DNA of 9,331 nt from a virus (lineage: Duplodnaviria > Heunggongvirae > Uroviricota > Caudoviricetes), in IMG/VR virus record IMGVR_UViG_2526164667_000011, positions 1-9,331 of that record; one strand, 5' to 3'. The notes below the pieces were generated by a model, which saw only the letters and a program-made list of their open reading frames with translations, searched no databases and was not told the origin of the DNA. The position numbers were made by a program, and so were the translations under genes. This document shows positions 1-9,331 of the stretch, one piece after another (position 1 is the stretch's first letter; each line of letters opens with the position of its first letter).

Positions 1-677
1 GTCAGCGACCAGAATTTTTTGATGTTGTTAATCGCGGTACGGCTGTATCGTTCGCGTTGTTCAACGATCCCCAGCTTCACCATCTGGTGATATGCCTGAT
101 TAGCCGTCAGGCGGATACCATACTGTTTCAGCAGTGCACTCAGCGACAGCGTGGGGCGGCTTGAGCCATCAGGCGCATCAGCAGGAGCATCAATGGCATA
201 GCGCGGTGCCAGATTCGGTAAGCCAACAGCCTCCTGAAGTTTCTGACAGGCTCCAAGCACTGAAGAGTTAGACAGATTTAACTCCCGGCGCATAAAGTCC
301 AGCAGAATCACACCAGCCTGCATCTTGTCAGCAGCCTGTTCGGATAATTTTTCCGGTGCGCTGGTTACCATGTCGAAAGTACGGATCACCTTCAGATGGA
401 ATGACGGGCTGATCCACATTGCATAGGCATACACCAGTTCTTTGCAGACATACGTCCCCTGGTTATTTCCGCCACGAATAACGTTAACTGGCTCTATATT
501 GACCGAGTTGCAAATCTGCAACTCGCTTATTAAACGCTCAGTTTGCTCATTGCGGAGCCAGAATGCAGGCTTATGCTTATCCAGAGAACCGGCAGCCCTG
601 TGCAGATCGTTCAGGCTGTAACGACCATAAGCATCACGACGAACTTCAATACCATCAATGACCATCAGATTATTCAT
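1..677 (-). CDS. KilA-N domain-containing protein (phage antirepressor-like DNA-binding protein); 3'-partial, C-terminus lies beyond the window start
   Basis: Not in the ORF track because it runs off the window. I translated the minus-strand frame by hand: ATG at 677..675 with an AGGAGA Shine-Dalgarno 6-7 nt upstream, then open to position 3 with no stop (more than 225 codons). The N-terminus MNNLMVIDGIEVRRDAYGRYSLNDLHRAAG...KPAFWLRNEQTERLISEL...GTYVCKELVYAYAMWISPSFHLKVI matches the KilA-N/APSES fold pattern from memory. It starts 19 nt downstream of the rusA stop. Confidence 0.6.
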   Translation of the reverse strand, partial: MNNLMVIDGIEVRRDAYGRYSLNDLHRAAGSLDKHKPAFWLRNEQTERLISELQICNSVNIEPVNVIRGGNNQGTYVCKELVYAYAMWISPSFHLKVIRTFDMVTSAPEKLSEQAADKMQAGVILLDFMRRELNLSNSSVLGACQKLQEAVGLPNLAPRYAIDAPADAPDGSSRPTLSLSALLKQYGIRLTANQAYHQMVKLGIVEQRERYSRTAINNIKKFWSL

Positions 678-696
678 ACTTCGTTTCTCCTCTTAA

Positions 697-1086
697 TCAG
701 GCGGCTGCACCCGCCGTTTTCTCGTACTTACTGATAGTGATCTCGACCTTCCCTTCCGGGATAACCGGTCCCCACTCCACCAGCATTCTTTTCACCTGAC
801 TGTCGTCTTCCCACACACCCGCGTGGGTCAGGGCGTCAAACAGCGCCTTGTTATAGTTGTCCAGATCGCGGATCCGGTTATCCGGAGGAAACAACACGAT
901 CTCCACTGAAGCAGGTGCCGACGTTGGTTTTGGCAGACGACGTAACTGCTCAACTATTGCTGCACACGCCGCGCTCTGGAATTTGCGCCCCGCCGCGCTT
1001 ATCAGGCTCTTACCTGCAAACGCCCCTTTGTTGGGGTGTCGCCAGTACGTGTTCACGCTGGGCGGGAAAGGCAGAATCAGCTTCAT
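697..1086 (-). CDS. rusA: RusA-family Holliday junction resolvase (crossover junction endodeoxyribonuclease)
   Basis: 129-aa ORF. LPFPPSVNTYWRH...DNRIRDLDNYNKALFDALTHAGVWEDDSQV resembles E. coli/phage RusA (PWPPSxNxYYRH...DLDN...KAxxDALTxAGxWxDDxQV), including the acidic catalytic cluster. Its start overlaps the upstream gene's stop by 4 nt (ATGA). Confidence 0.85.
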   Translation of the reverse strand: MKLILPFPPSVNTYWRHPNKGAFAGKSLISAAGRKFQSAACAAIVEQLRRLPKPTSAPASVEIVLFPPDNRIRDLDNYNKALFDALTHAGVWEDDSQVKRMLVEWGPVIPEGKVEITISKYEKTAGAAA

Positions 1087-1409
1087 ACTTTCAGACCCCT
1101 CTCATGTAACCAGTGGGCTGCACGCAGCCTGGCGTTTTCCTCACCGGCAAGCAGTGAGCGGATAATCCCGACCGCCTCGCTGTCGTCGTCCTTCACCGCG
1201 GTATGAAGCGTTATCCCCCGGGCCACACCACGCTTTATCGTGATGACGCCTTTTTTCTCCAGTGCGCGAAGATGCTCCACCGCTGCATTCACTGAACGAT
1301 ATCCCAGCATGGTTGCCACCTCCTGATTGGTTGGCGGAAAGCCACGCTCTTTCTGGTAAGAAATCAGCATATCCAGCACCTGCTGCTGGCATTGAGTTAA
1401 CGTCGTCAT
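1083..1409 (-). CDS. LexA N-terminal DNA-binding-domain-like protein (winged helix), lacking the S24 peptidase domain
   Basis: 108-aa ORF. LTQCQQQVLDMLISYQKERGFPPTNQEVATMLGYRSVNAAVEHLRALEKKGVITIKRGVARGITL parallels the LexA N-terminus ([65 protein letters not shown]). There is no GDSM/K peptidase region. 4-nt overlaps with both neighbouring genes. Confidence 0.7.
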   Translation of the reverse strand: MTTLTQCQQQVLDMLISYQKERGFPPTNQEVATMLGYRSVNAAVEHLRALEKKGVITIKRGVARGITLHTAVKDDDSEAVGIIRSLLAGEENARLRAAHWLHERGLKV

Positions 1410-2059
1410 GCCGCCATCTCCCTGACCAGTTTTTCCGCCTGCTGGCGAACCTGCGCCAGAAAGGCCTCACCACATGCCTCAAGTTCATCGCGCCCGATGT
1501 AGCTGATTGCCGGTCCCTTCCAGGTCTTGTCGAAAACAGCAATAGCACCAGCGAAGAAAGCGCCTGTCGGTACCTGCTTCTCGTCTTTCGGGATAAACCA
1601 GACAGGCAGTTCAAAACCAATACGCCCGCGAATAAAAGCAATATGATCTGCATCTTCCGGCCACCACACTTCGCTGGTGGCAGCTTTAATCAGGAAAACA
1701 TAGCGCCCGCCTTTATCACGCATGGCACTGGCATGCTTCATGATGTAACGCATGCCGGTGATGTATTGCCCCTCATGCTGACTGGCGCGGCTGTATGGGG
1801 GATTACCAAAGGCAGCACCTTTAAGCTCCGCAAGACGTTCTGACCAGTCATGCGCCAGCGCGTTGTCTTCCGCCGTGTAATACGCGGCACATTTGGCATT
1901 ATCACCGTCAGTGAACAGATCCAGAACAAACGGGCCAAACAGGGTGTTAATTCCCCAGAAAATGTTGTCCGGCGTGCGCCACTGATCGCCCACTTCCTTC
2001 AGTTCATGGGCTGGTTTGTTCCGCAGTTCCACCAGCGCCTGGCAATATTTATTACTCAT
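1406..2059 (-). CDS. Phage orphan N6-adenine DNA methyltransferase (Dam-like, NPPY motif)
   Basis: The protein contains GAAFGNPPYS, the catalytic (D/N)PPY motif IV of N6-adenine methyltransferases, and has typical phage Dam size. No restriction endonuclease partner is adjacent. The ORF track starts it at GTG 2092 (228 aa); I prefer ATG 2059 (217 aa, MSNKYCQ...), which forms a TAATG stop/start junction with the upstream gene and follows a GGGGG purine run. Confidence 0.75.
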   Translation of the reverse strand: MSNKYCQALVELRNKPAHELKEVGDQWRTPDNIFWGINTLFGPFVLDLFTDGDNAKCAAYYTAEDNALAHDWSERLAELKGAAFGNPPYSRASQHEGQYITGMRYIMKHASAMRDKGGRYVFLIKAATSEVWWPEDADHIAFIRGRIGFELPVWFIPKDEKQVPTGAFFAGAIAVFDKTWKGPAISYIGRDELEACGEAFLAQVRQQAEKLVREMAA

Positions 2060-2553
2060 TAAGCCCCCACGTAATTCCCTGACAGATACCACTCTTCACC
2101 CGATGCAGCGCGCTTGCTGCTTTTCCGTAAGCACCGCTCACGACGCGCCAGAAAATTGTTTCGCTCTTGCTGGGAGTGGCTTTCACGGAATGCCGCCATC
2201 CACACCGTTGCAGCACGACGGTATAAGCCCCTGGACTCCAGTTCTTCCGCCTGGCGGGTCAGGCACAAAATCACCCGTGGATCGTTAGTGCCGACATAGA
2301 AATTGCGCACAGGTCTGGTTTCTCGAACTGGTTGTGGTTCCGGTTCCTGCGCTCTCTCAGTCAGGCGCGGGAAATGTCTGCGTGTATCTCCTTCACAACG
2401 GTGAGCCACACGCCCGCTCTGACGTAACTTGCTTGCTGACCGCAGAACGCGCTGCCGTGAGTAACCTGCAAAAGCATCCGCAATGTCTCCGGAAGTACAC
2501 CCCGGATGGGCTTCAATGAATTTCTGAACGTCATTCAAAAGACTCATGATCAC
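2059..2553 (-). CDS. Putative transcriptional regulator with PerC-like C-terminal motif and a winged-helix-like N-terminus
   Basis: 164-aa ORF. The C-terminal segment LESRGLYRRAATVWMAAFRESHSQQERNNFLARRERCL resembles the PerC-family signature (GLWRRAAxRW) from memory. Start is GTG 2553 (4-nt overlap with the O-like stop) or ATG 2547. Same size and position as YfdN of CPS-53, from memory. Confidence 0.55.
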   Translation of the reverse strand: MIMSLLNDVQKFIEAHPGCTSGDIADAFAGYSRQRVLRSASKLRQSGRVAHRCEGDTRRHFPRLTERAQEPEPQPVRETRPVRNFYVGTNDPRVILCLTRQAEELESRGLYRRAATVWMAAFRESHSQQERNNFLARRERCLRKSSKRAASGEEWYLSGNYVGA

Positions 2554-3389
2554 CCCCTGAATCCTGCCGGGATCTGGCTGTAGTCCACGTTGTCGTAACT
2601 GGCTTTGAAGTACGGGTCCTCACGTCCGGCTACAGATACCGCAGGAACTTCCCAGGATTCTTCGAAATGACGATCCGGACCAAAGAACGTGACAGCCTGT
2701 TTCACAAATTGTGTGCCGCTGTTACCCATCGCAGATACCCAGCCCGCGTAGCGTTTCACACCTTCCAGCATGGTTTCGGGGTTTACCCCCTCATTCAAAC
2801 GGGCTTTCCAGGCTTTGAAGGCTGCAGATTTTGAATTGCCACCAGCACGTTTGGGATATGCCAGCCATGCCTGCTCAAACTCTGGAGAGTATTCCGGTCG
2901 GTTTGAACGAACTCGCACAGACTCATCAGCAGATGCACCAACAGCTATTGGTTCATTGACTGGTTCTTTGACTGGTTCAAAAGAGTGACTGGTTCTGGGT
3001 GAATCTCCTGCACTACCCCCTGGTGCAACTCCTGCACTACCTAGTGCAACTCCTGCACTACCTGGTGAATTTGCTGCACCAGATAGTGAATTATTTGCAC
3101 TACTCCCTAGTGAATCTCCTGCACCATCAAGATGAAGGAGATAGATATTACTTGAGTTACCTTTTTCACCTTTCCGGGTGACTTTTTTTACCAGCCCGGA
3201 CTCACAAAGGGCCGCAATATGATTCATCACAGAACGTTTGCTAATCTCGCACTGGTCAGCAATATGCTGGTAGCTGGGCCAGCACTCACCCTGATCGCTG
3301 GCATTATCAGCCAGCTTGATCAGAACCAGTTTTCGCAATGGATTACCCACTCGAATTTTCATCGCTTTAACCATCAGCTCCATACTCAT
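2550..3389 (-). CDS. Replication initiation protein, lambda O-like: N-terminal HTH DNA-binding domain, Gly/Ser/Ala-rich repeat linker encoded by the iterons, C-terminal replisome-organiser-like domain
   Basis: 279-aa ORF with a GGAGG Shine-Dalgarno 6 nt before ATG 3389. The N-terminus (KLVLIKLADNASDQGECWPSYQHIADQCEISKRSVMNHIAALCESGLVKK) is HTH-like. The linker GSAG-rich repeats coincide with the DNA repeats at 2999..3130. The C-terminal FEQAWLAYPKRAGGNSKSAAFKAWKAR motif resembles phage replication initiators. Architecture mirrors lambda O, whose gene also contains the origin. Confidence 0.75.
   Translation of the reverse strand: MSMELMVKAMKIRVGNPLRKLVLIKLADNASDQGECWPSYQHIADQCEISKRSVMNHIAALCESGLVKKVTRKGEKGNSSNIYLLHLDGAGDSLGSSANNSLSGAANSPGSAGVALGSAGVAPGGSAGDSPRTSHSFEPVKEPVNEPIAVGASADESVRVRSNRPEYSPEFEQAWLAYPKRAGGNSKSAAFKAWKARLNEGVNPETMLEGVKRYAGWVSAMGNSGTQFVKQAVTFFGPDRHFEESWEVPAVSVAGREDPYFKASYDNVDYSQIPAGFRG
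2999..3130. repeat. Iteron array (candidate phage origin of replication) inside the O-like gene: six tandem 21/24-bp units
   Basis: Units begin at 2999, 3023, 3044, 3065, 3086 and 3110. Examples are GTGCAACTCCTGCACTACCTA and GTGAATCTCCTGCACTACCCCCTG. Each unit holds an internal dyad (GTGCA...TGCAC). Periods are multiples of 3, so the reading frame is kept. An A+T-rich stretch follows at 3131..3193 (ATAGATATTA, CTTTTTCAC, ACTTTTTTTACC). Confidence 0.6.
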
Positions 3390-3610
3390 GCTGCACCTCC
3401 GAGATGCTTCATGTTTTTTCCGGAGCGAAAGGCTATAAGCGGCATACTGACGCGGTAATTACGGCCCAGCGGTTCACAAATCACCTTCTGACATTCACGG
3501 TCAACCAGGCTAACACGTAGAACATGCCCTGCAGGTGTGGTGTACCACTGACCCGGACGAGGACAACGGAAAGTCTGATTGGTAAACCGTTTGAAAATAT
3601 TCCGGATCAT
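3386..3610 (-). CDS. Small hypothetical protein (74 aa) between the Rha-domain gene and the O-like gene
   Basis: The ORF is bounded by 4-nt ATGA overlaps on both sides (start overlaps the Rha stop at 3607..3610; stop overlaps the O-like start at 3386..3389), the same coupling pattern as the rest of the operon. No recognisable motif. Its 3' end contains the O-like gene's Shine-Dalgarno. Confidence 0.45.
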   Translation of the reverse strand: MIRNIFKRFTNQTFRCPRPGQWYTTPAGHVLRVSLVDRECQKVICEPLGRNYRVSMPLIAFRSGKNMKHLGGAA

Positions 3611-4752
3611 TTGCGCCCCCTTACCTCTGAAGGGTTCAGCGACAAATTTATGAGGCAGGCCAGTGCCGAAGCATCATTAATATAGTCATACAAGCTAACA
3701 GCCAGCGGAGATTCGGCTTTTGCCAACATAGGATAAAGCTGCTGCAGCCAGACCTGATGAATTGATGAAATGTAGGAATAGAGAACGCTGGCGTTATGTG
3801 CAACGTCGCTCAGTACAGAGGGATTTGAAAGCTGTTTCTCCATCTGGTTAAAGGCATTGATGTATGCCTCTTTGAACTGGGCAGCACGTTTACCCGTGAA
3901 GCCCATGGCAAGAAACGCAAAACCGTCGCGGGTGATTTGGTAACAAGGGAGTTTGCGGCCTGTGCAATCGGTGTAATCACTGGGCTGAAAATTCAGCTCA
4001 GTGAATTCAACAGAGCACTCAAGCGTCTGGATTTTTTGAATAACGTTTTTGTGCTGCTTGCAGAAATATTCGGCAACGGCCAAAGAAGAGGTAACAGCCT
4101 TCCCATGGATAACATCAATTTTAGGGTGAGTTTGGGTAGGGGTGGTTGCCATAGTGACATCCTCATGTGCGAATTTTGAAAACTCACCACATGGGACGCC
4201 AATCACAGAGGTGGTGAGACGTACAGGGTTGGCGTAACCGGTCGCACATGACCCCGGCGCATCTTTCGATGCCCCTGCACGCCCCACCATAATTTGGATG
4301 TGAGGAAACGTGCGCAAAAAAACCGCTGAAGCGCGGTTATGCGCATGTGCGAATTTCAGGACGCCAATCCCGGCACCCGCTTTATAAGGTGCCTGAGCAG
4401 TGTAACGTCCCGGAATTGCAGAATCAATATGCTGGTGGTCCTTCACACTCAACAAAATCACGCCTGAATTTCCACAAAGGACTAAAGCACTCATGCGGGT
4501 AGTCTTTGCGAAGATAGATAACGCGCTGTGTTTCTGGCTCCCAACGAATAACATGGACATAAAGCCCTCTTCCGTCACGAAACCAGCGGTTAAGTTCCTG
4601 CACAACTCGCCCCCCACAGTCAGGTAAAGTTCTCTGTGGTTACTTACAGCCAGGTGATTTGGTAATCTGCATTCATGCCGTAACAACAGGTGTTCAGCGA
4701 CGCTGACCACCAGCTGTTGCGACAAACGGTTATTTGCCGTTAAACTGTTCAT
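3607..4752 (-). CDS. Rha-family phage regulatory protein; the track ORF is 381 aa with the Rha domain at about residues 205-300, and an internal ATG at 4152 would give a canonical 181-aa Rha protein
   Basis: VTSSLAVAEYFCKQHKNVIQKIQ...YQITRDGFAFLAMGFTGKRAAQFKEAYINAFNQMEKQL matches the Phage_pRha signature (ITRDGFxFLxMGFTGKxA...FxxAFNxME). The frame is open for 1146 nt, with an ATGA overlap with the upstream gene at 4749..4752. The internal ATG at 4152..4150 (Met201) has a GAGGA Shine-Dalgarno 7 nt upstream and sits where Rha proteins normally begin. Confidence 0.6.
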   Translation of the reverse strand: MNSLTANNRLSQQLVVSVAEHLLLRHECRLPNHLAVSNHRELYLTVGGELCRNLTAGFVTEEGFMSMLFVGSQKHSALSIFAKTTRMSALVLCGNSGVILLSVKDHQHIDSAIPGRYTAQAPYKAGAGIGVLKFAHAHNRASAVFLRTFPHIQIMVGRAGASKDAPGSCATGYANPVRLTTSVIGVPCGEFSKFAHEDVTMATTPTQTHPKIDVIHGKAVTSSLAVAEYFCKQHKNVIQKIQTLECSVEFTELNFQPSDYTDCTGRKLPCYQITRDGFAFLAMGFTGKRAAQFKEAYINAFNQMEKQLSNPSVLSDVAHNASVLYSYISSIHQVWLQQLYPMLAKAESPLAVSLYDYINDASALACLINLSLNPSEVRGRK

Positions 4753-5300
4753 GCGTTAGTTTCTCCACAGACACAAAACGCCACGACGCCCGGAGCTGCA
4801 CACTCGCGGGCGTCACTCTTTTCTGGAGCGCAAAAGATTTTGTAGACCAGTGCTGCATGCTCCTGGAGCTTCGAAATTGACAGATACAACTCATCATTAA
4901 TTGCTGTCTGCTCGTGTGGCTCCACTACCCCATCTTCGATTGCCGAACGAATCTGCTTTGAGTAACTCCCGATCTGTTCGATGGCTTCCAGCAGGCGCTG
5001 GTTTATATCGGCGTTCTCTACTTCCTCAATTTCAGGAAGCGATACAAACACCCCACCAGCAGACTGTGCGACAGCATCCGCAATGTAGTGAGTGCCAGCC
5101 GCGCGCTGTAAAATCATTGCCCATCCCAGCGGGAAAATCTGATCGCCATCTGCACGAAGGCGGTTGAATAAAGCGTTCTCTGTTACATCCAGCCACTCAG
5201 CAGCTTCAGCGTAACCTCCCGGCAACGCCGCGATAGTTTTTCTGACAGCTTTCACGTACCACTCAGGTTGTTTTTCCACTTTCCAGTGATGCTTACCCAC
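4749..5300 (-). CDS. Putative CII-like phage regulatory protein (in the cII position immediately after cro; possibly the CP76/YdaT-like family)
   Basis: 183-aa ORF with a GTG start at 5300 and a strong GGAGGT Shine-Dalgarno 5 nt upstream, which lies inside the 3' end of cro (8-nt overlap). Assignment is mainly by position/synteny; family membership is from weak memory only. Confidence 0.5.
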   Translation of the reverse strand: MGKHHWKVEKQPEWYVKAVRKTIAALPGGYAEAAEWLDVTENALFNRLRADGDQIFPLGWAMILQRAAGTHYIADAVAQSAGGVFVSLPEIEEVENADINQRLLEAIEQIGSYSKQIRSAIEDGVVEPHEQTAINDELYLSISKLQEHAALVYKIFCAPEKSDARECAAPGVVAFCVCGETNA

Positions 5301-5553
5301 GGCTTACCTCCTGTTCCTGTGGTTTAAACCCATTCTGGTTTTGGCTAGATTGAAAACGTGCCGGATAAAGAATCTGCATTTCGCTGATTTCACCCTTAAA
5401 AAAATTGGCCAGACGTTCTGCAAGATCGATAAATGGAATTTGTTCCTGTCTTTCAATACGACTCAGCGTCGCTGGATTGACCTGAACGCCCGCAGCAACA
5501 TGCTGCAAAGTAAATCCGTGCGCCTTACGCACATTCCGTAATGGTGATTGCAT
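5293..5553 (-). CDS. Cro-like HTH transcriptional regulator (XRE/Cro-C1 family)
   Basis: 86-aa ORF divergent from the cI-like gene. The HTH segment is GFTLQHVAAGVQVNPATLSRIERQEQIP. GGAGG Shine-Dalgarno 5-6 nt upstream of ATG 5553. First gene of the minus-strand early operon. Confidence 0.8.
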   Translation of the reverse strand: MQSPLRNVRKAHGFTLQHVAAGVQVNPATLSRIERQEQIPFIDLAERLANFFKGEISEMQILYPARFQSSQNQNGFKPQEQEVSRG

Positions 5554-5650
5554 ATAACCTCCACATATTGCGTGATGAGCATATTATTTCACGCAAATAT
5601 TTTGCGCAAGTTGATTTGCTTAACGCGCAATAAAGAAATGTAATAAACGC
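5554..5650. promoter_or_regulatory. Divergent cI/cro operator-promoter region (PR/PRM-like) with clustered TTGCG/CGCAA half-site palindromes
   Basis: Inverted repeats: TTGCGTGA-N13-TCACGCAA (about 5568..5596), CGCAAA-TAT-TTTGCG (5592..5606), palindromic TTGCGCAA (5602..5609) and TTGCttaacgcGCAA (5617..5630). Candidate minus-strand promoter for cro: -35 TTGCGC, 17-bp spacer, -10 TAATAT. Candidate plus-strand promoter for cI: -35 TTGCTT (5617..5622), 16-bp spacer, -10 TGTAAT (5639..5644), placing the transcript start at or next to the cI ATG. Confidence 0.55.
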
Positions 5651-6343
5651 ATGAACATAGGAAATCGAGTCAGACAACTTCGCCAGGCGAAGAACATGAA
5701 AATCGCCGATCTCGCTGAAGCAATAGGAGTGGATGCGGCGAATATCTCGCGCCTCGAAACAGGTAAGCAGAAACAATTCACTGAACAAGCCCTGAGTAAT
5801 ATTGCCAGGAGCTTAGGTGTTGATATTGCTGATCTCTTTACCTCAGACCTCAAAAGTAATACTGTATGTAAAAACAGTATTAGTGAGGATGTTGCGCAGG
5901 TGAAGGATGTATTCCGTATTGAAATGCTGGATGTCAGTGCCAGTGCGGGAAATGGCCTTATCCAGGGCGGTGATGTCATTGATGTGATTCATGCCATTGA
6001 ATACAGAACTGATAATGCTGTATCGATGTTTGGTGGACGACCAGCAAATCACATTAAAGTTATCAACGTTCGTGGGGACAGTATGTGTCCAACCATTGAG
6101 CCAGGAGATCTCATCTTCGTTGATATCAGTATCAATCAGTTTGATGGGGATGGTATATATGTATTTGGTTTTGATGATAAAATTTACGTCAAACGACTGC
6201 AAATGATACCTGATAAACTGCTGGTAATTTCTGATAATCAGATTTACCGCGAATGGGGAATTACCAGCGAAAACGAACATCGGTTTATGGTCTTTGGAAA
6301 GGTCTTAATCAGTCAGTCACAAACCCTTAAGCGACACAATTAA
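5651..6343 (+). CDS. cI: cI-like phage repressor: N-terminal HTH_XRE domain plus C-terminal S24 (LexA-like) autopeptidase domain
   Basis: 230-aa ORF. HTH: MKIADLAEAIGVDAANISRLETGKQ. Peptidase: Ser nucleophile in VRGDSMCPTIEPGDLIFVD (Ser144) and Lys in IYVKRL (Lys181), 37 residues apart as in LexA. Candidate Ala-Gly autocleavage site at Ala99-Gly100 (SASAGNG). No Shine-Dalgarno precedes the ATG. Confidence 0.9.
   Translation: MNIGNRVRQLRQAKNMKIADLAEAIGVDAANISRLETGKQKQFTEQALSNIARSLGVDIADLFTSDLKSNTVCKNSISEDVAQVKDVFRIEMLDVSASAGNGLIQGGDVIDVIHAIEYRTDNAVSMFGGRPANHIKVINVRGDSMCPTIEPGDLIFVDISINQFDGDGIYVFGFDDKIYVKRLQMIPDKLLVISDNQIYREWGITSENEHRFMVFGKVLISQSQTLKRHN
5860..5879. promoter_or_regulatory. SOS-box (LexA-box)-like palindrome TACTGTATGTAAAAACAGTA inside the cI coding sequence (interdomain linker)
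   Basis: Matches the E. coli LexA box consensus TACTGTATATATATACAGTA at 16 of 20 positions, with a perfect CTGT-N8-ACAG core and AT-rich centre. It is the only CTGT-N8-ACAG site I found in the window. Function is untested. Confidence 0.4.
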
Positions 6344-6364
6344 CCCCTACCTCAACATCAATTA

Positions 6365-6384
6365 GCCACCAGAAGGTGGCTTTT
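6365..6384 (+). terminator. Rho-independent terminator downstream of the cI-like gene
   Basis: GCCACC-agaa-GGTGGC hairpin (6-bp GC-rich stem, 4-nt loop) followed directly by TTTT, 22 nt after the cI stop. Confidence 0.6.
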
Positions 6385-6397
6385 CATCACCCACCAA

Positions 6398-6452
6398 ATT
6401 GCATATCTCGCAATAAAAACACTTGCATAATGCGCAACTTCATTTTATCTTT
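6398..6452 (+). promoter_or_regulatory. Candidate OL/PL-like operator-promoter for the rightward yfdP-yfdQ-yfdR operon
   Basis: ATTGC-atatctc-GCAAT (6398..6415) and TTGC-ataatgc-GCAA (6423..6437) repeat the TTGC/GCAA half-sites seen in the cI-cro region. Possible promoter: -35 TTGCAT (6423..6428), 17-bp spacer, -10 TATCTT (6446..6451). Hexamer assignment is tentative. Confidence 0.3.
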
Positions 6453-6883
6453 CTTTCCAGACATACAAACAAGGTACTAACAAAATTTGGTTGTAACACG
6501 GCGTATGGCACATGCGTCGTTAGCGGTCTGGTGACGTTAAAGGGGACAATCCACTCCTTGCTCGAGCAAACAAACCAGGTAGCCGGAATGTGCAAGTCAA
6601 TGATGACGCTGATAAGACGCCTAACCAGCGTGGCGATTCGGTTTGACGCCTGGGAAGAGACCAGGGTGCAACGATGAGGGCATTTATGGAACCGCGACAA
6701 AGTGTGGTGCCGTAACTGGCTAAGTGCTCTCAGCGTTGTGGTGAATGCGCAGGCTGATGCGCGAAAGACATTGCAGCTATTGCGGAAAAGAGCTGTTCGG
6801 CGGGGCAATTAAACGCCCGTGAGAGTCTGAAATAACCGCAAGCCGGAGATCAGCACCGGTCACCACAGCAGCCACTGCTTTGG

Positions 6884-6929
6884 CGGTACCAGTTTGTACA
6901 CTTGCTTACGGCTGGTACCGCTCTTTTTA
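6884..6929 (+). terminator. Hairpin followed by a T-run in the long leader before yfdP (terminator-like, or an RNA element with a boxA-like CGCTCTTTTTA)
   Basis: Perfect 9-bp stem CGGTACCAG/CTGGTACCG (6884..6892 and 6912..6920) with a 19-nt loop, followed by CTCTTTTTA. The sequence CGCTCTTTTTA (6919..6929) resembles a lambdoid/rrn boxA (CGCTCTTA / TGCTCTTTAACAA). The large loop makes a classic terminator uncertain. Confidence 0.35.
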
Positions 6930-7065
6930 CAAAACAGAGAAGAGCATCACCGGACGACGGGCTCATAACCCAATCCATCCGGGCGGCTGCCACCGCAGGT
7001 GTTCTTCTCTGTTTTGTGGAGAAACCAACCGACCTTGCAGGGTCGATATGATGAGGAGTAGCAAA

Positions 7066-7428
7066 ATGGCTAGCGAACGCAGTACTGATGTGCAGGCATT
7101 TATCGGGGAGCTGGACGGCGGCGTATTTGAAACCAAAATCGGCGCAGTTCTCAGTGAAGTCGCTTCCGGTGTGATGAACACGAAAACCAAAGGTAAGGTC
7201 TCGCTCAACCTGGAAATCGAACCGTTTGATGAGAACCGTGTGAAAATCAAACACAAACTCTCATATGTTCGCCCGACTAACCGCGGGAAAATTTCTGAAG
7301 AAGACACCACCGAAACGCCGATGTATGTCAATCGCGGTGGTCGCCTGACTATTCTGCAGGAAGACCAGGGACAATTACTGACTCTTGCCGGTGAACCTGA
7401 CGGAAAACTCCGCGCAGAAGGTCATTAA
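7066..7428 (+). CDS. Hypothetical protein, YfdP-like (CPS-53/KpLE1 prophage family), 120 aa
   Basis: The track ORF starts at 6880, but the plausible start is ATG 7066 (MASERSTDVQAFIGELDGG...), preceded by GAGGAG about 8 nt upstream; two ATGs at 7047/7050 lack a Shine-Dalgarno. The size and the position immediately upstream of yfdQ fit YfdP from memory. Confidence 0.65.
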   Translation: MASERSTDVQAFIGELDGGVFETKIGAVLSEVASGVMNTKTKGKVSLNLEIEPFDENRVKIKHKLSYVRPTNRGKISEEDTTETPMYVNRGGRLTILQEDQGQLLTLAGEPDGKLRAEGH

Positions 7429-7493
7429 TATCGTTCTTAATTAACTGATTATTTATCTCATCACTGAATATCTTAATATAGTGAGGACTTATT

Positions 7494-8318
7494 ATGTCTC
7501 AGAACTTAGACGCAACCGCAATTAATCAAATCCATGCCCTTATTTCTGCTCAGGGTGTTAATGAAATTATCAGTAAGATTGGTGCCGATGCTGTGGCATT
7601 GCCTGAGAATTTCCGCATTCATGATCTGGAAAAATTTAATTTAAATCGCTTCCGTTTCCGTGGTGCGCTTTCCACTGCCAGCATCGATGACTTTACCCGT
7701 TATTCTAAAGATCTTGCAGATGAAGGCACCCGCTGCTTTATCGATGCCGATAATATGCGAGCAGTCAGTGTGCTTAACCTGGGTACTATTGATGAACCAG
7801 GTCACGCAGATAACACCGCCACTCTCAAACTGAAAAAGACAGCACCGTTCTCTGCCCTGTTGTCTGTTAACGGCGAGCGTAACTCCCAGAAGTCACTGGC
7901 AGAATGGATTGAAGACTGGGCCGACTACCTTGTGGGCTTTGATGCTAATGGTGACGCTATTCAGGCAACAAAAGCGGCTGCGGCGGTCCGTAAAATCACG
8001 ATTGAAGCAAACCAGACCGCTGATTTTGAAGATAATGACTTCAGCGGCAAACGCTCCCTGATGGAGTCTGTCGAAGCGAAGACCAAAGATATTATGCCAG
8101 TGGCATTTGAATTTAAATGCGTTCCGTTTGAAGGTCTGAAAGAACGTCCGTTTAAATTACGCCTCAGCATTATCACTGGCGATCGTCCTGTACTGGTTCT
8201 GCGCATTATTCAGCTGGAGGCGGTGCAGGAAGAAATGGCTAACGAATTTCGTGATCTGCTTGTTGAGAAATTCAAGGACAGCAAAGTAGAAACCTTTATT
8301 GGTACTTTCACCGCCTGA
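7494..8318 (+). CDS. yfdQ: YfdQ-family protein (DUF2303), 274 aa
   Basis: GAGGA Shine-Dalgarno about 8 nt upstream of the ATG. Length and sequence ([21 protein letters not shown]...) match my recollection of E. coli K-12 CPS-53 YfdQ. It lies directly upstream of the HD-domain yfdR-like gene, as in K-12. Confidence 0.8.
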
Positions 8319-8330
8319 TTTCATTACTGC

Positions 8331-8355
8331 AAATGCCCCTGCGGGGGCATTTATG
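8331..8355 (+). terminator. Stem-loop downstream of yfdQ (possible weak intrinsic terminator or attenuator)
   Basis: AAATGCCCC-tgcg-GGGGCATTT hairpin (9-bp stem with a GC-rich core) starting 13 nt after the yfdQ stop. The trailing U-tract is short (AUUUAUGG), so termination is probably partial. Confidence 0.4.
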
Positions 8356-8445
8356 GAAACGTAATTTACTCAATAATCGCCGGATGGTGAGGGATTCTTT
8401 TTACCAGAATTCAGCGCGGTGCAGCGCATATACGTGGAGAACAAA

Positions 8446-9331
<886 letters not shown>

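Follow-up and report, generated by a model that had tools for sequence, protein, structure and literature searches.

To our knowledge, phage repressors with a Peptidase_S24 domain are held, after the lambda paradigm, to sense DNA damage only through RecA-stimulated self-cleavage, and LexA-gated antirepressors are treated as a separate strategy of non-cleavable repressors. Prophage antirepressors repressed by LexA include Tum of coliphage 186 and AntC of N15. In the Streptomyces phage phiC31, nested in-frame isoforms truncated at the N-terminus are produced from the repressor gene c by internal promoters or starts. GfoA and GfhA of the Salmonella Gifsy prophages are further LexA-repressed antirepressors (PMC7067206, PMC12626290). 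Here we analyze a LexA (SOS) box located inside the coding sequence of a cI-type repressor gene in a 9,331-nt stretch of a virus of the class Caudoviricetes (IMG/VR record IMGVR_UViG_2526164667_000011, positions 1 to 9,331; the whole stretch is called the window below). Comparison with 223 cI genes suggests that this box is the operator of a nested in-frame gene, whose product would be the C-terminal domain of the repressor alone.

The closest published ideas found are Hex of phage 434, which is translated from the PRM mRNA in the lysogen in a different frame and inhibits repressor autocleavage (PMC3564112), and gp6 of the Gram-positive tectivirus GIL01, a phage LexA homologue without the catalytic domain that activates a late promoter (PMC6182141). 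A literature search that included the exact box sequences found no description of a LexA box within a repressor gene; this is weak evidence of novelty, as most subscription journals were outside the search.

LexA Box within the cI Gene

The cI-type gene of the window (5651..6343, plus strand) encodes a protein of 230 amino acids with an HTH_3 domain at residues 7-62 and a Peptidase_S24 domain at residues 104-218 (Pfam). The 20-mer TACTGTATGTAAAAACAGTA is located in frame within this open reading frame (ORF) at 5860-5879 (no strand assigned), 210 nt into the gene, where it spells codons N70-T-V-C-K-N-S-I77 of the interdomain linker. It is one base off the umuDC box and has the palindrome TACTGT-(A/T-rich N8)-ACAGTA with the invariant CTG/CAG triplets that characterizes gammaproteobacterial LexA boxes. 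The weight matrix was built from known Escherichia coli LexA sites, four of which (umuDC, sulA, and the two lexA boxes) were checked against MG1655. With this matrix the site scores 25.0 bits, compared to 26.4 bits for umuDC and 23.1 bits for recA, so that both score and exact sequence bear out the near-ideal LexA box reported in the linker by the initial annotation.

The same annotation considered the box to be the only one in 9.3 kb. This is true of the full site, as the runner-up 20-mer in the whole window reaches 8.1 bits with the same matrix, and it is not true of the bare core CTGT-N8-ACAG, which has a second exact copy at 4634-4649 (6.4 bits). Cores with one mismatch occur at the chance level (six found versus 3.2 expected, and at least six in 22 of 200 shuffles), and the expectation for twelve fixed bases is about 6e-4 matches per 9.3 kb at equal base frequencies. 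The exceptional part is the full site with its TA flanks and A/T-rich spacer; the core alone is unremarkable.

Boxes of related phages were scored as well. The SfII box is the umuDC box, letter for letter, and in the whole ST64B genome the cI box is the sole strong LexA box. In mEp460 (L111), boxes at 23255 and 23283 are situated, as expected, in the promoter of a dinI-like gene; another one, of 22.5 bits (41021-41040), lies right at the beginning of gp53, a DNA methyltransferase gene of the late region, downstream of Q, where SOS control is unexpected.

Conservation of the Box

The box is kept in 220 of the 223 distinct cI genes collected in one genome scan, one metagenome scan, and four viral-contig scans. 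It starts at nt 206, 209, or 215 of the gene and scores 15.2-28.1 bits, with a median of 23.3 bits. The box-bearing genes form 26 clusters below 80% amino acid identity, the lowest identity to the window cI being about 48%, and their hosts include Escherichia, Shigella, Salmonella, Citrobacter, Kluyvera, Klebsiella, Pantoea, Mixta, Rosenbergiella, Proteus, and Serratia.

The linker is less conserved than any other part of the protein, yet the box occupies the same codons in six diverged phages, where T71, V72, and S76 are the only invariant linker residues. In the first set of 25 relatives, T71 is encoded by ACT and S76 by AGT in 25/25 cases, the gene-wide shares of these codons being 39% of the Thr codons and 18% of the Ser codons, respectively. 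Among the 37 invariant residues with at least 4-fold degenerate codons, these two are the sole ones with zero codon variation, and codon choice varies even at the catalytic Ser144. In addition, the CTG/CAG triplets are unaltered in all 80 near-identical E. coli contigs. Since there is no synonymous variation at T71 and S76, the peptide is conserved because of the box and not vice versa. Judging from the aligned genes, the box is under strong selection at the DNA level. The initial annotation had asked for this comparison with synonymous variation, and the box turns out to be kept beyond what the encoded peptide SNTVCKNSIS requires (25/25 codons, 220/223 genes).

Three genes lack the box. Two of them are from Dryocola, and one of these retains a GC-rich CTGT-N8-ACAG core scoring 6.5 bits; both encode Gly at codon 87 and lack a Shine-Dalgarno (SD) sequence. 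The third gene, from a 40% identical relative in Phaseolibacter flectens (L027, 2501-3187; L350 contains the same element), has lost the Ala-Gly site as well as the Ser and Lys residues, with EDNM and IRRI where the others have GDSM and VKRL. A 19-bit LexA box (L027, 2266-2285) is located 235 nt upstream of the latter gene, beside a promoter-like element TTGACC-N17-TATACA. Two of the viral-contig scans, aimed at further box-less relatives, yielded only box-bearing genes and the same Phaseolibacter element.

Promoter Geometry and Strand

Sigma-70-like elements were scanned on both strands of 25, and then 26, diverged representatives. The sole consistent promoter candidate lies on the plus strand and consists of a hexamer starting at the Phe63 codon, a spacer of 17 nt, and TACTGT, the first half of the box. 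In the window, the sequence and the promoter scans point to a -35-like hexamer TTTACC (5837..5842, plus strand, codons F63-T64) located 17 nt upstream of the -10-like hexamer TACTGT (5860..5865, plus strand), with a predicted transcription start at approximately 5872. The corresponding layout of both sulA and umuDC in MG1655 is TTGATC-17-TACTGT, and hence the architecture of the box is a known functional one. The 17-nt spacing is observed in 217/220 genes. The quality of the -35-like hexamer is variable, with three of six positions matched in about half of the genes (TTCTCT in 51, TTTATT in 35). The median promoter score at the box is 6.9 bits on the plus strand, within the top 6% of in-gene windows, and 5.1 bits on the minus strand, within the top 17%. 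Taken alone, this promoter evidence is moderate.

Two other lines were dropped. A -10 element inside the box (TATAAA or TATAAT) is seen in some clades only and has no consistent -35 element, and the constant length of the linker is uninformative about promoter spacing, as both sides of the box are length-constrained.

Candidate Nested Start and Its Product

If the box governs a sense promoter, something translatable is expected downstream of it, and a start was indeed found. We searched codons 74-100, that is, from the box to the Ala-Gly site, for an in-frame ATG, GTG, or TTG with an SD duplex of -5 kcal/mol or lower. Such a start is present in all 220 box-bearing genes, 14-56 nt downstream of the box, and in none of the three box-less ones. 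On the opposite strand, a start with an SD sequence within 65 nt occurs in 9/220 genes only. In the first set, the start is present in 25/25 genes, and a 19-codon sliding window finds no other position of the gene where all 25 possess one (the gene-wide median is 0, and the second-best position has 12). Synonymous recoding that keeps the protein gives per-cluster probabilities from 0.001 to 0.28; the Fisher combined p is 6e-15 for the 26 clusters, a value too optimistic given their common ancestry.

The usual start is codon 87, before the conserved [FY]-R-V motif: it is GTG in 21 clusters, ATG in three, and another codon in two, compared to a 20% share of GTG among all Val codons. Textbook start sites are found in distant clades, for instance, AGGAGAGAAGATGTG, GGGAGGGAGGATGTG, and TAAGGAGAGCGGTATG. 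In the window, the start candidate comprises an SD-like GAGGA (5885..5889, plus strand; duplex of -6.3 kcal/mol), a spacing of 10 nt, and GTG at 5900 (V84), and it is retained in 80/80 near-identical contigs. As in genes of the sulA/umuDC type, the operator is followed closely, and on one strand, by the SD sequence and the start. The site and its quality, its conservation at the DNA level, the strand-specific co-conserved start, and the geometry common to sulA and umuDC are all observed directly. The box and the start appear to have been lost together, in two lineages only.

These findings bear on the place of the box, which the initial annotation put in the linker "rather than in a promoter". 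That was probably wrong, given the promoter-operator geometry of sulA and umuDC and the conserved translation start downstream. Control of an internal promoter, one of the mechanisms listed by the same annotation, is the mechanism favored by the comparative data.

Met92 was tried as an internal start and rejected, since it is not conserved and is replaced by ATA, GTA, or ATT codons in relatives. As a separate observation, between the nested SD sequence and GTG84 lies ATGTTGCGCAGGT (5889-5901), which is similar to the operator half ATTTTGCGCAAGT of the OR region (5599-5611, repeat D10). It is not conserved in other clades; in the E. coli clade, cI might itself contact the nested start of translation.

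The predicted nested gene extends in frame from GTG (V84) to the cI stop (5900..6343, plus strand), its initiation region being conserved in 220/220 box-bearing genes. The putative product of 147 amino acids would contain the complete Peptidase_S24 domain (residues 21-135) and retain the cleavage site Ala99-Gly100 (5945-5950) and the catalytic residues Ser144 (6080-6082) and Lys181 (6191-6193), all on the plus strand, as well as the motifs GDSM, VKRL, and SASAG of cI. The Ala-Gly site would lie within a 16-residue N-terminal arm. Among the solved proteins with an S24 domain, only UmuD and UmuD' were matched by sequence. The nested product is 36% identical to E. coli UmuD (139 amino acids) over 83 amino acids with a register offset of one residue, and therefore the nested start falls at the UmuD start; LexA is more distant (29% over 49 amino acids). 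With an S24 fold, a Ser/Lys dyad, and an Ala/Cys-Gly site in the N-terminal arm, the predicted protein has the features of the UmuD family. A partner umuC gene, encoding a Y-family polymerase, was sought directly downstream, where there is no polymerase ORF and the terminator and the OL/PL region follow. For this reason the nested product is not filed as UmuD.

Proposed Mechanism

We suggest the following course of events. In the undamaged lysogen, host LexA bound at 5860-5879 would cover the -10-like TACTGT and occlude the nested promoter, and polymerases coming from PRM would have to read through the LexA-bound site, so that a simultaneous roadblock effect is possible. Upon DNA damage and cleavage of LexA, RNA polymerase would start at approximately 5872 from TTTACC-17-TACTGT, and ribosomes would bind at GAGGA (5885-5889) and initiate at the in-frame GTG (5900). 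The product would be the 147-residue S24 C-terminal domain alone, without the DNA-binding domain, UmuD-like in size and alignment. Repressors with an S24 domain dimerize through the C-terminal domain, as known for lambda cI, LexA, and UmuD. For that reason, the isoform could pair with full-length cI to form DNA-binding-deficient heterodimers, lowering operator occupancy and favoring induction. Prophage induction would thus be coupled both to the inactivation of LexA and to the self-cleavage of cI. The binding of LexA, the activity of the promoter, and the existence and function of the isoform are the steps that we infer. On balance we give somewhat better than even chances to a LexA-repressed nested gene that would yield an isoform consisting of the C-terminal domain only during the SOS response, plausibly a dominant-negative antirepressor.

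Several points weigh against this proposal. As a -10 hexamer, TACTGT is weak (3/6), the -35-like hexamer comes from the conserved Phe63 codons and reaches just 3/6 in about half of the family, and much of the promoter score is contributed by the box itself. In the clade of the window, codon 87 is GTA, so that the start must be GTG84 with a rather long SD spacing of 10 nt. The abundance of Glu, Gly, and Asp in the linker favors purine-rich SD-like strings, a bias for which the recoding test makes a correction, although its clusters lack phylogenetic independence. The negative set amounts to just three genes from two lineages. Finally, the dominant-negative role is pure inference, and a decoy that shields cI from RecA* and delays induction would fit the sequences equally.

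A broader picture may be drawn, tentatively, and we regard it as possible rather than probable. A widespread family of enterobacterial prophage repressors (SfV/SfII, mEp460, ST64B, and some Stx2a phages) would carry its own SOS-inducible antirepressor as a nested in-frame gene, whose UmuD-like domain would poison cI dimers or hand them to proteases, in analogy to UmuD, which hands UmuD' to proteases. Induction would then proceed via the loss of LexA and not only via slow self-cleavage, and in some phages a LexA-like phage protein consisting of the DNA-binding domain only (see below) could re-close the operator in lytic growth. ST64B is reported to be induced earlier than the antirepressor-dependent Gifsy prophages (PMC12626290). 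This early induction, together with the sole strong LexA box of ST64B, is compatible with the nested-gene proposal and not specific to it.

Alternative Explanations

The initial annotation had also suggested that LexA could act as a roadblock, and this idea is still live, possibly alongside a nested promoter. LexA bound inside the gene would hinder polymerases from PRM and PRE, capping cI in healthy cells and letting it rise as LexA falls; such an SOS-coupled resupply of the repressor, comparable to lexA autoregulation, would buffer the lysogen against mild damage. The position of the site, 210 nt into a transcribed and translated gene, and its score, in the highest affinity class, agree with such an attenuator, which moreover needs no promoter and so is indifferent to the weakness of the -35-like element in about half of the family. 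The mRNA of ST64B cI (STMMW_20241 / SL1344_1967) is up to about 2-fold higher where cro rises, according to a table of transcripts per million, an ambiguous observation. However, a roadblock leaves unexplained the strand-specific in-frame SD sequence and start, which all 220 box-bearing genes possess 14-56 nt downstream and the box-less relatives lack, as well as the sulA/umuDC-like spacing. Extra cI during the SOS response would also oppose induction, and single repressor roadblocks in translated regions are generally leaky. It accounts for less of the data than the nested promoter, and as the main role of the box we consider it unlikely.

The other explanations have far less in their favor. 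The palindromic box offers TACAGT/TACTGT on both strands, and in some clades TATTAT or TATATA is found within it on the minus strand. An antisense promoter, another possibility raised by the initial annotation, could therefore send a transcript back through the 5' half of cI and OR into cro, disturbing PRM and priming lytic transcription. It is very improbable, as no -35/-10 pair is consistent across relatives on the minus strand (median of 5.1 bits, top 17% of windows), the sequence upstream on that strand is the variable linker, and a downstream translation start occurs in 9/220 genes, versus 220/220 on the plus strand. The box might also be of a non-regulatory nature, being a relic of an ancestral fusion of a helix-turn-helix (HTH) domain to a umuD-like gene, an mRNA hairpin, or an SD-like element that pauses ribosomes where the two domains meet. 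Indeed, it is located at the exact junction of the domains, the C-terminal domain is UmuD-like, the SfII box is identical to that of umuDC, and a palindrome could fold in RNA. Yet a relic would not give zero synonymous variation across about 50% protein divergence. The conserved letters are those of the LexA consensus (CTGT/ACAG, the TA flanks, the A/T spacer) and not compensatory stem pairs, the spacer varying freely, and a pausing element does not require the start codon, yet GTG or ATG is kept. We give this last group of ideas hardly any credence.

The true ligand of the box could, finally, be a phage protein. The initial annotation mentioned a paralog consisting of the LexA DNA-binding domain only, and a 108-residue protein of this kind is indeed encoded at 1083..1409 on the minus strand (LexA_DNA_bind, E 2.9e-19, no S24 domain). 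It is 43% identical to residues 1-90 of E. coli LexA, where the alignment ends, and conserves the recognition helix RSxNAAxEHL; with the LexA_DNA_bind domain alone, it is not a LexA in the full sense. Such a protein, shutting off cI or the nested gene in lytic growth, would have a suitable recognition helix, and it co-occurs with this cI in mEp460, SfII, Stx2a_1447, 1720a-02, and the PhiR phages. However, its gene, situated between the Dam methylase and RusA genes, belongs to a mosaic Dam-RusA nin module present in 61 phage records, including Stx2c and cdtI phages with other repressors. It was not found in ST64B by tblastn, and non-E. coli phages with a box-bearing cI are not among its matches, the box being conserved regardless; besides, the protein is devoid of the LexA dimerization domain. 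The paralog may bind the box in some phages and cannot explain its conservation, and the chance that it is the true ligand appears very slight.

Immunity Region and Neighboring Genes

The gene has the setting of a lambda-type cI: an HTH domain and an S24 autopeptidase, a divergent cro, and operator repeats at both sides. It faces the cro-like gene (5293..5553, minus strand; HTH_3, labeled Cro in the SfII and PhiR phages) and a CP76/CII-like gene (4749..5300). The OR region between cro and cI (5566..5632) contains repeats of the TTGC-N7-GCAA type (families D1/D3, inverted repeat I1), and an OL-like operator pair, TTGCATATCTCGCAA and TTGCATAATGCGCAA (6399..6437), is located upstream of the left early operon. 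Between cI and the OL-like pair, a hairpin followed by a T-run (6364..6385, plus strand), annotated as a terminator in SfII, would stop the full-length and nested transcripts alike; the terminator scan reports this hairpin on the minus strand.

The immunity region is shared with mEp460, SfII, and ST64B, several of whose records annotate cI and Cro. Its 5500-6450 part is present in 1040 of the 5426 complete E. coli genomes, about 19%, and in all but one of the 1041 matching records the identity is at least 90%. It also occurs in phages mEp460, SfII, 1720a-02, Stx2a_1447/WGPS2, and phiSTEC1575-Stx2k, and more distant copies are found in Salmonella ST64B (74%) and in Citrobacter phiNP and Klebsiella phages (about 69%). 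Prophage e14 of K-12 was considered as a known LexA-regulated relative and discarded, as its repressor, YmfK, is a different one whose gene contains no box.

The stretch of about 500 nt after the cI terminator (6386-6880) contains the OL-like operators and a dubious minus-strand ORF of 122 amino acids (6440..6808), which is gp37 of mEp460 and has no Pfam match. The small RNA STnc1310 of ST64B, about 330 nt downstream of cI, falls into the equivalent region and is unrelated to the box. The 500 nt may therefore represent an RNA leader and not a gene. An Rfam scan of the window gave no match at the box; its sole matches are a C4 antisense RNA (75 bits, 4207-4294, minus strand) and isrK (62 bits, 4316-4392, minus strand), just upstream of the Rha/Ash-domain part of the 381-residue ORF 3607..4752, and so the 5' end of that ORF is probably an over-call. 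The layout recalls the immI (c4-ant) module of P1 and the IsrK-AnrP modules of Gifsy, and the same pair is found in ST64B (L002, 207-395). At the right edge of the window, a 73-residue ORF (9056-9277, plus strand) with an HTH of the resolvase/transposase type (HTH_7, E 1.5e-10) may be the start of an insertion sequence that interrupts the early-left region of the prophage.

Comparison with Known Systems

The cI family considered here appears to join self-cleavage and LexA gating in one gene, with the LexA operator inside the coding sequence. If the nested isoform exists, models of the induction threshold and of spontaneous induction would change for a very common type of prophage immunity, carried by Shiga-toxin Stx2a phages, Shigella serotype-converting phages, and Salmonella ST64B. 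The locus would also provide a clean example of dual coding, in which an operator, a promoter, and a ribosome site constrain a protein linker, and would suggest an evolutionary route, namely, the fusion of an HTH domain before a umuD-like SOS gene. Synonymous mutations can abolish the box or the start and leave full-length cI unaltered, which makes the idea accessible to a direct test.

The predicted unit resembles E. coli sulA and umuDC in having a TACTGT half-site 17 nt after a -35 hexamer that begins with TT and an SD sequence and start within about 35 nt of the box; the resemblance to umuDC extends to the product, an S24 protein collinear with UmuD. The unit differs from both in that it is embedded in frame in a larger gene, the operator also encodes a linker, and the -35 element is weaker in many relatives. 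Phage LexA-type DNA-binding domains without S24 have a parallel in gp6 of GIL01, to which ORF 1083..1409 may be likened by domain content. Hex of phage 434, like the predicted isoform, is a second protein in or overlapping the repressor gene region that modulates RecA-dependent induction, but it is not under LexA control. The shorter isoforms of phiC31 c similarly share the C-terminus of a phage repressor in frame; they are not controlled by SOS or LexA and belong to another protein family with another proposed role.

Tum, GfoA, GfhA, and AntC are similar in logic, a host LexA operator gating a phage product whose target would be the lysogeny repressor, so that induction directly requires the inactivation of LexA. 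They are, however, unrelated small proteins encoded by separate genes, and their repressors are not self-cleaving. The candidate described here is nested in frame inside cI and thus is not a separate antirepressor gene; it would be the repressor's own C-terminal domain with the RecA-dependent cleavage apparatus kept, and its antirepressor activity is the putative part of the analogy. On these comparisons, the feature is probably best described as an SOS-gated prophage control that resembles the logic of 186, Gifsy, and N15 but is nested in a self-cleaving repressor.

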